Virus record (IMG/VR): IMGVR_UViG_2839594473_000016
Length of the DNA stretch: 47,271 bases
From: a virus
Taxonomy: Duplodnaviria > Heunggongvirae > Uroviricota > Caudoviricetes
Strand: one strand, 5' to 3'
Below, piece by piece: positions 42,001 through 45,000 of the stretch (the stretch's first letter is position 1; each line of letters begins with the position of its first letter). Made by a program: the position numbers.

Positions 42001-45000
42001 ATGGCTTACCCCCTTGCTGACTGGTTTTACCTGTGCCCTGACGTGCTGCACGTGACGGGCAAATTTCTGCTCCCACTGAACCTGCGTGAAAACCTTCCCC
42101 TCCGCCATCCAGTAATCCCGGAATGCGGCAAGCTCAGCAGGTGTAAACTCAGGCTCAGGCAGAGCCATACCCCACAATGCAGCCCGCTGTCGAAAATCCA
42201 GCGACGGCCGCCAGACACCAGTCATCGGAAATTTCCCGATCGGTTCGCTCAGGCCATCCGGGTATTCAGGTTCTGCTGTCTGCAACGGCGCGCCATTCGA
42301 CTCACTGGCTGGAGCACTCTCGCGCATGCGCGCGTTATGTGTGGGGTTTAATTCTTTATCTGTATCTGTATCTGTCGTGACTTGTCGTGACATATGCGTG
42401 ACGCGTCGTGACTCATCGTGACAATCAGTGTTCTGCTCCCGCAGTCTTTCCCGCTCCCGCTGCGCTCTCTTGCGCTCTGCCGGGGATTTTGCGGTTTGCG
42501 AAACATTACCGTTATCCTCCTTCATCACCTGGCGTTTTTCCCATCCGGAAATAAGATCGCCATCCAGAACTCGCCCCTGCATTGCATGCAAAATTGAATC
42601 AATCACGTCTTCCGTCACATCAAGCGCACTTGCTAAATCTTCCGTCGTGACATCAATGTGACCACGTAGTGACTCGCCGTGACATTTCGTGACATTTCGT
42701 GACGCACTCACCAGAAGGTGGATATACACCGCCATCACTGTTGCGATTGGCTGTCCTGAGACCCTGGCAATGGTTCGCCATTTGGGATCATTTGGCATGT
42801 CATGCCACAATCTGAGCCAGGCATTAGCCATACTCACCTCATCTGATACCGAACTTTACCCTCGAACATCCGGAAGAAATCCGGCATGAATATTGTTGGT
42901 CAATGCACGACAACAGCATTACCAGGCTGACCCCCACTGTTAGTCAGGGTGCCCCAGGCGATCGCCGCTGCGACAAAATCATCCACATCTTTCACCAGCC
43001 GATCCCTCCGTTCGACGATCTCACGGTAATATTCAGAGCTGTGACTGCGCATACGGGCCACCAGCAGAGGCGGCATTGCCTTTTCGATCGCCGGTAACAG
43101 AGCCTGCATTTTTTCAACAGCATCAGGGGTGTCTTTATCCAGCCAACGGAAAATTTTCTGGGTATTACGAGCCAGGGCTTCCGGATGGCTGTCGTCGTAC
43201 AGTTCCGGGAACGTCATCCCCAGTTCGAAATAAGTCCGGGCTATTTCAGCTGCAGGAACTTTCTCACCATCAGGATATGCCCAGGCATTCATCGCCATGC
43301 GGATGTGCTCATGTTTGATTTTCATGAATCATTTGCCTCTTGATGCTTCGGGTATGATCGTTTTCGTCATTTGGTTGCTTCATCGACATATTCTGCGAAT
43401 AACATGACGAGCGTCGTAAGTATGTCCAATCAACATCAGGACGAAGTTCTTCACACAGGACACCACCTTTTGTTGCTCGTTCAATCGCAGGACATCTCTC
43501 AGCAGGCAACTGACGTACACCTTTGATCCATTGATTTACGCTTGGAGGAGATACACCTAAAAGCCTAGCCATTGCTGATTGCCCACCGACAACAGCACAA
43601 GCTCGTTTGAATGAATAGTTATCTTTTTTCATCGAATGAACTCCAAAAAACACACAATAATATTAGGCTTAGCCTAATGCAATTGTCAATAGGCTATGCC
43701 TAACACTTCGAGAGTAGGCATTGCCTAATGCGATGCGCATAGGAGACTATTAAGCAATGCTTAGTGGTAAAGACTTAGGCCGAGCGATAGAGCAGGCCAT
43801 TAACAAAAAAATTGCATCAGGAGCCGTCAAATCAAAGGCGGAAATCGCACGTCATTTCAAAGTCCAACCACCATCAATCCATGACTGGATTAAGAAAGGT
43901 TCGATAAGTAAAGACAAACTTCCAGAACTATGGCGTTTCTTTTCTGATGTGGTTGGTCCAGAGCATTGGGGGCTTAACGAATACCCCATACCAACCCCAT
44001 CCACTTCAGATACAAAAAGTGAACTTTTAGACATAAACAGCCTTTATCAAGCCGCCTCTGATGAAAAAAGAGCAATTGTGGCTTTCCTCTTATCTGGAAA
44101 TGCTACGGAGCCTAGTTGGGTTGATCATGACGTTCGTGCCTACATTGCCGCAATGGAAATGAAGGTAGCTAACTATCTGAAAAATCAAGAATCAAAACGG
44201 AAAAGCCAGAACATCACCAAGACAGGAACTTAAACTTATATGGTCCGACGGGAAATTCCTAGTTCCCGTTAGTTAACTCCTACTACCTCTCCCACAAACC
44301 ATCACCTATTAGGTCGCACCCAAATCATTAGGCGTAGCCTATTGACAAGCAATTAGGCATTTCCTATAGTTTTCCCATACCAACCCATCCCGTCCCACAC
44401 AATACAGGGCAATACCTAGAGTTACCCGGCAGTGGTCAGGGATTAAGTAGCCAGCCCGAGGCGTAAGAACATGACGGCAGGGTTCAACTTTAACTATGCA
44501 GCAGGTTTTTGTTCCGCTACCCCGGCGTTAAGGGGATATGAGGTCAGCATGGATACTCTTGATCTTGGCAACAACGAATCTCTGGTGTGCGGCGTGTTTC
44601 CCAACCAGGACGGCACGTTCACCGCGATGACGTATACCAAAAGCAAAACGTTTAAAACCGAATCTGGCGCGCGTCGCTGGTTAGCAAGAAACTCTGACTA
44701 ATGAAATCTGGTAATTAAGGAATCCTCCACGGGGGGAGAGTGGTGCACACGCGCCGGACACAAGCAAGCATCCGGCATGCTCTTTAACAATCTGGATATC
44801 CATAACAGTAAAAATCTACAGATTGCCGTTCAGTTTTCTGGCCAACTCTTCAATAGATGGAGGTGATACGTAATCCGGATTTTTATTCATAAGAAACTGA
44901 TTTTCACAGTACAGGCACCTGCTTTTATGAAAAAATTCATATTCTCTAACCGGGAATGGCTGAAGTATCGATACTATCTTTTGTCCAAAACATTTTGGAC

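Follow-up and report, generated by a model that had tools for sequence, protein, structure and literature searches.

In phage lambda and in the Stx phages with six-iteron origins (P27 and 933W), the replication origin lies within the initiator gene, between the segments encoding the DNA-binding N-domain and the loader-binding C-domain, and the iterons are followed by an AT-rich tract. The four lambda iterons are of larger size than the repeats described below, have inverted symmetry and form one block. The number of iterons varies in these phages, and extra iterons matter (PMC7466680). In SPP1, oriL is embedded in the middle of gene 38, which encodes a replisome organizer without AAA+ (G38P), and consists of initiator-bound repeats (AB boxes) and an adjacent AT-rich DNA-unwinding element (DUE) (PMC5737612), while a second initiator-bound site is present at oriR (PMC6316719). 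Iterons and an AT tract inside the initiator gene are a known kind of arrangement, represented by lambda and SPP1. In the stretch of 47,271 nucleotides analysed here (the window; IMG/VR virus record IMGVR_UViG_2839594473_000016, Caudoviricetes), the coding sequence of the phage's own replication initiator probably contains a two-part iteron-type origin, made up of a core (array 1 and an AT-rich tract) and an auxiliary initiator-binding array (array 2).

As in the lambda and Stx phages, the proposed origin would lie between the two domains of the initiator, its repeats are followed by an AT-rich tract, the partner gene encodes a lambda-P-type loader, and the N-domain with the iterons and the C-domain with P recombine as units. 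Unlike in lambda, the window protein is no Phage_rep_O homologue, the units are direct repeats of ~10-11 bp, one per helical turn, and two arrays are present ~225 bp apart, one of them within the coding segment of the DNA-binding domain. The initial annotation had pointed to two blocks, one more than the single iteron block of the lambda origin, and two arrays were confirmed. The likeness to SPP1 lies in the likely type of initiator and in the mid-gene position of the repeats and the adjacent AT-rich element, which were also seen in SPP1 (L144, 540-627); the repeat units differ in size and sequence, and the second SPP1 site is ~13 kb away and intergenic, whereas both arrays lie in one gene here. 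Direct similarity to G38P was rejected (pairwise E=14), the links being sub-threshold profile and fold matches only.

Satellite phage P4 also has two separated sets of one short repeat (ori and crr), which serve one initiator, and the second set acts positively in cis. Unlike the present arrays, the P4 sets are ~4.5 kb apart and outside the coding sequence of the DNA-binding domain, and the P4 alpha initiator is a primase-helicase, domains that are absent from the window protein. Plasmids of the P1 oriR/incA type have same-orientation iterons, a winged-helix Rep, a DUE and a second iteron array outside the minimal origin, and in RepA_N plasmids the origin repeats are inside the rep coding region. 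The window locus resembles the former in having iterons beside a putative DUE and a second array of the same iterons, and the latter in having the repeats within the initiator gene. Plasmid iterons are typically 17-22 bp with a spacing of about two turns, unlike the units of ~10-11 bp and one per turn found here, and their handcuffing is a plasmid-maintenance control. A further difference is the lack of DnaA boxes at the proposed origin of the window (see below).

Two arrays of direct repeats in the initiator gene

Both arrays are contained in one minus-strand open reading frame (ORF) of 347 codons. By direct reading of 41800-43600 and a motif scan, CGTGAC starts in array 1 were placed on the plus strand at 42376, 42386, 42397, 42407 and 42417, with spacings of 10, 11, 10 and 10 bp, in agreement with the five repeats given for this cluster in the initial annotation. 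In array 2, GTGAC starts were found at 42647, 42658, 42669, 42679, 42689 and 42699 (plus strand; spacings of 11, 11, 10, 10 and 10 bp). The second cluster had been described with four repeats; the cluster itself stands, whereas the count was corrected to six, since the array begins 22 bp earlier. Every unit of both arrays has the same orientation, so that each array comprises at least three same-orientation direct repeats in helical phase. Array 2 lies ~225 bp upstream of array 1 in gene sense, and a repeat finder placed copies from both arrays in one repeat family.

The arrays are non-random. CGTGAC occurs 37 times in the whole window, against 19.4 ± 4.0 expected, and the largest same-strand GTGAC clusters per 60 bp contain six and five copies, while no more than three were reached in 500 dinucleotide shuffles. 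No other non-homopolymer 5-mer showed comparable clustering across the 47-kb window, and GTGAC itself forms no cluster elsewhere in the prophage besides the two arrays. A 162-bp tandem repeat was also observed at 20221-20813 (3.7 copies, 97% identical, unit of 54 codons), in which CGTGAC recurs every 162 bp on the minus strand.

Constraint on the arrays as DNA

Array 2 encodes residues 43-62 (ASRNVTKCHGESLRGHIDVT), which correspond to the end of helix 3 and the beta-hairpin of the N-domain, and array 1 encodes residues 137-152 (CHDESRRVTHMSRQVT) in the interdomain linker. GTCAC is read in frames 2, 0, 1, 2, 1 and 0 in array 2 and in frames 1, 2, 0, 2 and 0 in array 1, and this one DNA word gives different peptides (SR, VT, CH, ES and GH). 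When codons were resampled under local usage with the protein fixed, none of 5000 trials yielded the six copies of array 2, and none of 5000 the five copies of array 1. Since the motif occurs in all three frames with different peptides and resampling never reproduced the arrays, codon or amino-acid repetition was rejected as an explanation, including the pure codon repetition that the initial annotation had named as a possible refutation.

Synonymous positions pointed the same way. Among 23 homologues with GTCAC arrays (class A, mean nucleotide identity of 72%), third-codon entropy in the array-2 motifs was 0.17 bits, compared with 1.32 bits at other conserved codons (p=2e-4). In nine class-B homologues, synonymous-site entropy was 0.14 bits inside the motif and 1.14 bits outside (p=5e-5). 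Judged from these sequences, the arrays are constrained as DNA beyond their coding need. The claim of the initial annotation that two iteron-like clusters at helical-turn spacing lie in the initiator gene was borne out by the positions, the shuffles, this synonymous-site constraint and, as described below, the fixed positions in relatives, the joint change of the motif in both arrays and the conserved AT-rich tract beside array 1.

Other functions of the arrays were considered at the level of nucleic acid. A structured RNA or RNA family was rejected (no Rfam match at E<=1; RNA folding z-scores of +0.47 and -0.43), and so was a promoter role, as no promoter-like site lies within the arrays. A terminator role was also rejected, because the terminator-like matches at 42318-42346 correspond to a GC palindrome of the C-terminal module that is not conserved in phage Evi. 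No DnaA box with one mismatch or less was found in 42300-42900; the absence of DnaA boxes from the proposed origin region of the window differs from the external arrays of three relatives (L133, L137 and L138, see below), beside which such boxes are present.

Conservation and co-variation of the arrays

In phages and prophages from more than 25 genera, both arrays occupy the same two positions in the gene. About 980 protein clusters were matched in the homologue search, and at least 583 viral contigs encode a relative. Phages Evi and Tritos keep both arrays with 5 + 4 units, and compared with them array 2 of the window is longer by 21 bp (42667-42687), an in-frame insertion of two units. A distant blastn search recovered the module from Pseudomonas D3-like phages (4 + 4 units) and Aeromonas phage pAEv1818 (3 + 4 units), with 67-70% identity; the C-domains and downstream helicase genes of these phages are unrelated. 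Like Evi and Tritos, these share the two-array architecture and are deposited as phage genomes. A species scan with one genome per species returned 52 loci, and GTCAC arrays were present at the same two offsets in about 27 of them, in Escherichia, Shigella, Entomomonas, Aquitalea, Rahnella, Bordetella, Serratia, Pseudomonas, Gilvimarinus, Acidovorax, Chromobacterium and other genera; the hosts of array-bearing loci are gamma- and beta-proteobacteria. Among 20 class-A loci, the upstream gene belonged to 16 unrelated clusters, the C-domain to nine and the downstream gene to at least ten. In this comparison of loci, only the N-domain accompanies the arrays throughout.

In distant homologues both arrays adopt a new word in concert: GTCACG is replaced by CGAACGC in about 11 loci of beta- and gamma-proteobacteria and by GTAACGC/GAAACGC in five loci, and mixed and palindromic variants are likewise reproduced in both arrays. 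The encoded peptide changes with the word, e.g., from ASRNVTRGH to SNATERGRTQ and CNAVKRGETQ. The three motif classes track N-domain clades, and the same class is found in both arrays of a gene. In a de novo 5-mer comparison, 33 of 42 loci were concordant, while permuted pairing gave a mean of 16 and a maximum of 25; this test is inflated by relatedness and serves as support only. In locus L126, a near-identical stretch of ~30 nt is common to array 2 (anchor position about +97 to +150) and array 1 (about +399 to +440), GAAACGAC(T/C)GGTAACGCAGGTGTAACGCA, which encodes ETTGNAGVTQG twice, and from this sequence duplication or gene conversion between arrays is seen to occur. A single unit in inverted orientation downstream of array 2 is kept in most class-A relatives at about +168 from the anchor WHDMPNDPKW, with 80-99% column identity. 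In some class-B loci, CGTTC was observed directly after array 2.

The number of units changes in both arrays, and array 1 ranges from three to six units across relatives. Among close E. coli relatives in IMG/VR, 68 loci have 6+5 units, ten have 6+4 by point mutation and one has 6+6. In the latter (L072, contig 2713896784_000012), array 1 contains one duplicated 10-bp unit (CAAGTCACGA) that frameshifts the initiator gene into stop codons, which represents a natural case of unit slippage inactivating the gene. Array 1 was found without array 2 in L128, and only one or two units were found in L117, L118 and L130, while array 2 alone was not found in any lineage scanned. In three contigs of one beta-proteobacterial metagenome-assembled genome (L133, L137 and L138), the initiator has no internal arrays, and a stand-alone array of three to four CGAACGC/CAAACGC units with an AGA-rich tract lies ~520 bp upstream of the gene, outside any gene, adjoined by one or two perfect DnaA boxes (TGTGGATAA). 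This layout indicates that the module of array and AT tract is not confined to coding DNA and can occur in an origin-like setting with a single array.

AT-rich tract and mosaic junction

An AT-rich tract directly adjoins array 1 and contains the three TATCTG copies that had been noted beside this cluster. It is purine-rich on the gene strand, encodes TDTDTDKELN and holds the GC minimum (0.375). The 30-mer at 42347-42376 has a stability of -32.1 kcal/mol, compared with a mean of -42.8 (standard deviation 2.9), and is the least stable between the cII-like gene and P and among the least stable 3% of the whole window. The tract is conserved, since 34 of 40 relatives have a run of AGATA(A/C) hexamers directly after array 1. 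The copy number of the hexamer varies between three and five, in frame. In relatives, the tract has an AT content of 0.68, compared with 0.45 for the gene, is 74% purine on the gene strand, and is kept even where the gene is only 31-40% AT, in GC-rich hosts.

In megablast comparisons with phage genomes, the homology of the initiator gene splits at 42353-42373, which corresponds to the AT tract. The N-terminal half and the cII-like gene match phages Evi, Tritos and 640R1, while the C-terminal half and P match ydaU/ydaV of Rac-SA53 and PPompW phages. The AT tract is therefore the junction of a mosaic of an N-module and a C-module. The Rac-SA53 initiator (L003 YdaU, with a DUF1376-type N-domain) shares the AT tract and the C-module and has no GTGAC arrays, indicating that the arrays belong to the N-domain module, as the iterons of lambda do.

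Two observations were made around this junction. In Rac-SA53 ydaU (L003, 2540-2650), the AT tract reads GGGGTTTAATTCTTTTAGATCTGTATCTGTATCTTTATTAG, and the inverted repeats TGTTCAAACACC and TGTTTGAACACC replace the GTGAC arrays; they are possibly iterons of a different origin specificity, of the Rac oriJ type. In the window, a GC palindrome (CGCGCATGCGCGCG, 42321-42334) follows closely after the AT tract, towards the C-module; it is imperfect in Rac-SA53 and absent in Evi. An inverted repeat is also found beyond the AT tract of the lambda origin.

Initiator protein and neighbouring genes

The initiator consists of a winged-helix-like N-domain (residues 1 to ~100), a basic linker and a DnaT-like C-domain (residues ~201-267). 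It is labelled 'DnaT-like ssDNA-binding domain-containing protein' in RefSeq, where no origin is annotated at the gene, and is assigned to PHROG 1408/3729 ('replication initiation protein'). The sole Pfam match is the DnaT DNA-binding domain PF17948 (62 bits, cut-off 25, ORF residues 203-269). The NCBIfam DnaT equivalog scored 91.8 bits, below its full-length cut-off of 201, indicating that the protein has a DnaT domain only and is not DnaT itself. Membership of the lambda O family (Pfam Phage_rep_O) was rejected, as no match was found at E<=0.01 with the whole protein or at E<=10 with the N-domain. The description of the gene as O-like in the initial annotation consequently does not hold; the N-domain resembles replisome organizers at sub-threshold level, the C-domain is DnaT-like and only the partner is lambda-P-like.

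The N-terminal 133 residues gave 17.4 bits (E 0.004) with the replisome organizer model TIGR01714, below the cut-off of 49.8, and PF09681 gave no match with the window protein and 19.6 bits (cut-off 23.3) with a relative (L123). Close relatives are named 'phage replisome organizer' by NCBI. In an AlphaFold2 model of the N-domain, with a predicted local distance difference test score (pLDDT) of 77.8, three helices are followed by a beta-hairpin (residues 47-58), two further helices and a wing. In Foldseek searches, this model weakly matched CRP-family winged-helix domains in PDB (E about 0.04) and viral 'replisome organizer' models in BFVD (E 0.03-0.04, probability 0.98). The N-domain is likely, but not proven, to be a winged-helix DNA-binding domain related to replisome organizers.

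The coordinates of the features are given in Table 1. A RacR-like repressor gene on the plus strand is followed by a pR-like promoter and then, on the minus strand, by the cro/YdaS-like, cII/YdaT-like, initiator and P-like loader genes. From this order, transcription from the pR-like promoter would pass through both arrays. The loader gene travels with the C-terminal half of the initiator. An integrase gene lies at the end of the window, which adjoins potC in the chromosome. The 2.4-kb replication module is 100% identical to many O157:H7 chromosomes, and most of it was found in 651 of 5,426 complete E. coli genomes, at up to eight places per genome. The prophage at potC is Sp6 of O157:H7 strain Sakai (PMC8190617), for which spontaneous excision, circularisation and replication have been reported, together with a lambda-type loader (PMC2669165).

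In public databases, most close E. coli relatives of the initiator are 'partial' proteins, encoded on contigs of 0.6-5 kb. Breaks within or close to the initiator gene thus seem frequent in short-read assemblies, as would be expected if a genome carries several similar copies of the prophage.

Table 1. Positions of the arrays and associated features. Coordinates refer to the window, except for the external arrays.
Feature	Position	Strand	Description
Array 1	42376..42422	minus (gene strand)	Five GTCACG units; gene-sense spacing 10, 10, 11, 10 bp; proposed core iterons
AT-rich tract	42347..42375	minus	CAGATA x3 then AAGAATTAAA on gene strand; TATCTG x3 on plus strand (42357-42374); proposed DNA-unwinding element
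Array 2	42646..42703	minus (gene strand)	Six GTCAC(G) units, 10-11 bp apart
Single inverted unit	42614..42618	plus	~30 bp downstream (gene sense) of array 2; consensus GACGTGACA, encodes D-V-T
Replication initiator gene	41794..42831	minus	RefSeq start ATG 42831; mechanical ORF 41794..42837, GTG start 42837
Lambda-P-like helicase loader gene	41340..41801	minus	Pfam Phage_lambda_P PF06992, 60.9 bits (cut-off 26); PHROG 109 'P-like helicase loader'; RefSeq coordinates
pR-like sigma-70 promoter	43660..43689	minus	TTGACA-18-TAATAT; upstream of cro-like, cII/YdaT-like, initiator and P genes
External arrays	L133 about -560 to -450; L137 about -575 to -455; L138 about -550 to -450		Relative to gene start at 1501

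Proposed origin and alternative explanations

By analogy with lambda O and its origin (PMC7466680) and with SPP1 G38P and oriL (PMC5737612; PMC6316719), array 1, with one unit per helical turn, and the adjoining AGATAA-type AT-rich tract are predicted to form the core of an origin that the initiator would bind and fire. Monomers of the initiator N-domain would bind the units head-to-tail on one face of the DNA, one per helical turn, the AT tract would melt, and the DnaT-like C-domain and the P-like loader would bring in host DnaB. The melting site is placed on the same grounds. Array 2 would be a second binding array for the same N-domain and an auxiliary element, and it may help firing as part of a single larger nucleoprotein complex, looped or wrapped, that assembles cooperatively, a role put forward tentatively, with somewhat less than even confidence.

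Several points weigh against this two-part origin. Literature searches found no binding or replication experiment for this initiator family and no description of its origin. Array 2 has no AT-rich tract of its own, and the lineages without array 2 (L128, L133, L137 and L138) indicate that the family can do without it. A constant helical phase between the two arrays was rejected, as inter-array distances differ by multiples of 3 across relatives and are not phase-locked. Duplication or gene conversion between the arrays could contribute to their co-variation. The fold and profile links of the N-domain are weak (Foldseek E about 0.03-0.04; 17 bits against 49.8 for TIGR01714), and its helix at the usual recognition position is acidic.

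Some of these points bear on a different division of labour, in which array 1 and the AT tract are the whole origin and array 2 binds the initiator but acts negatively or directionally. In its negative variants, array 2 would titrate or handcuff the initiator, as P1 incA does, or act as a roadblock through which transcription of the initiator and P genes is autoregulated; in the directional variant, it would act as a barrier to forks, so that replication becomes unidirectional and a shift to rolling-circle mode is favoured, a role suggested for gp38 bound at SPP1 oriR. The evolutionary dispensability of array 2 beside a kept array 1, its lack of an AT tract and its place in the path of pR transcription are consistent with such a role, and the second gp38 site of SPP1 has been proposed to stall forks (PMC6316719). 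On the other side, efficient replication of Stx phages depends on their extra iterons, which do not inhibit it (PMC7466680), and the family consists mostly of phages and prophages, in which negative copy control is not expected. This assignment of array 2 was considered rather unlikely, although the main contender.

Binding of the arrays by some other factor was judged very improbable. TGTCAC at 10-11 bp resembles pho-box half-sites, and OmpR/PhoB-type winged-helix proteins use direct-repeat sites, so that unit and spacing would suit a host response regulator such as PhoB; a cII/YdaT-like regulator or a packaging protein could be named as well. Such binders are hard to reconcile with a word that becomes CGAACGC or GTAACGC in step with the phage N-domain clade, with upstream and downstream genes and C-domains that are unrelated among loci with the same arrays, with hosts spanning gamma- and beta-proteobacteria, and with a motif that clusters nowhere else in the 47-kb prophage; host PhoB in particular was rejected as unlikely, since in different hosts the motif tracks the phage protein's clade. 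The chance that the arrays are by-products without protein binding appears smallest of all, whether as slippage-prone coding repeats or recombination sequences kept for tolerated peptides or mRNA. Their location in structurally permissive segments (the hairpin, pLDDT 64-74, and the linker), the gain and loss of units, and the mosaic junction at the AT tract would fit this idea. It is countered by synonymous positions that are frozen in the motif while neighbouring ones are free, by peptides that vary with frame and class while the DNA word is kept, by the same array outside any gene beside DnaA boxes (L133, L137 and L138), and by the RNA results given above.

A further idea concerns how the two-part origin would be read, namely that the initiator reads bases with the very beta-hairpin that array 2 encodes, so that the site encodes its reader. 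If this were true, a word change would alter site and reading head in one step, which would explain why the arrays and the protein switch class jointly while the rest of the domain is nearly unchanged. Within the folded domain, the classes were told apart best by the residues of the hairpin and by the one that follows the conserved RG turn. This discrimination is partly forced by the DNA, however, the basic segment after the domain (residues ~105-125) discriminates equally well, and in L133, L137 and L138 the hairpin differs (NAEERGHxHH) yet adjoins CGAACGC arrays. The idea was regarded as highly doubtful.

Implications for phage replication and prophage annotation

Compared with known origins inside initiator genes, the new features are units of ~10-11 bp with one per helical turn, two arrays in one gene, the placement of one array in the stretch that encodes its own presumed reader, the DNA-binding domain, and the evolution of both arrays in concert through at least three specificity classes. 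An embedded origin module would explain why the initiator gene is a mosaic breakpoint and why many close E. coli relatives are recorded only as partial proteins. The family offers a natural system for the co-evolution of an initiator and its site under shared coding constraint, and for the role of a second iteron array in a phage. It also provides a sequence signature that may be used to annotate origins and replication-incompatibility types in the prophages of pathogens.

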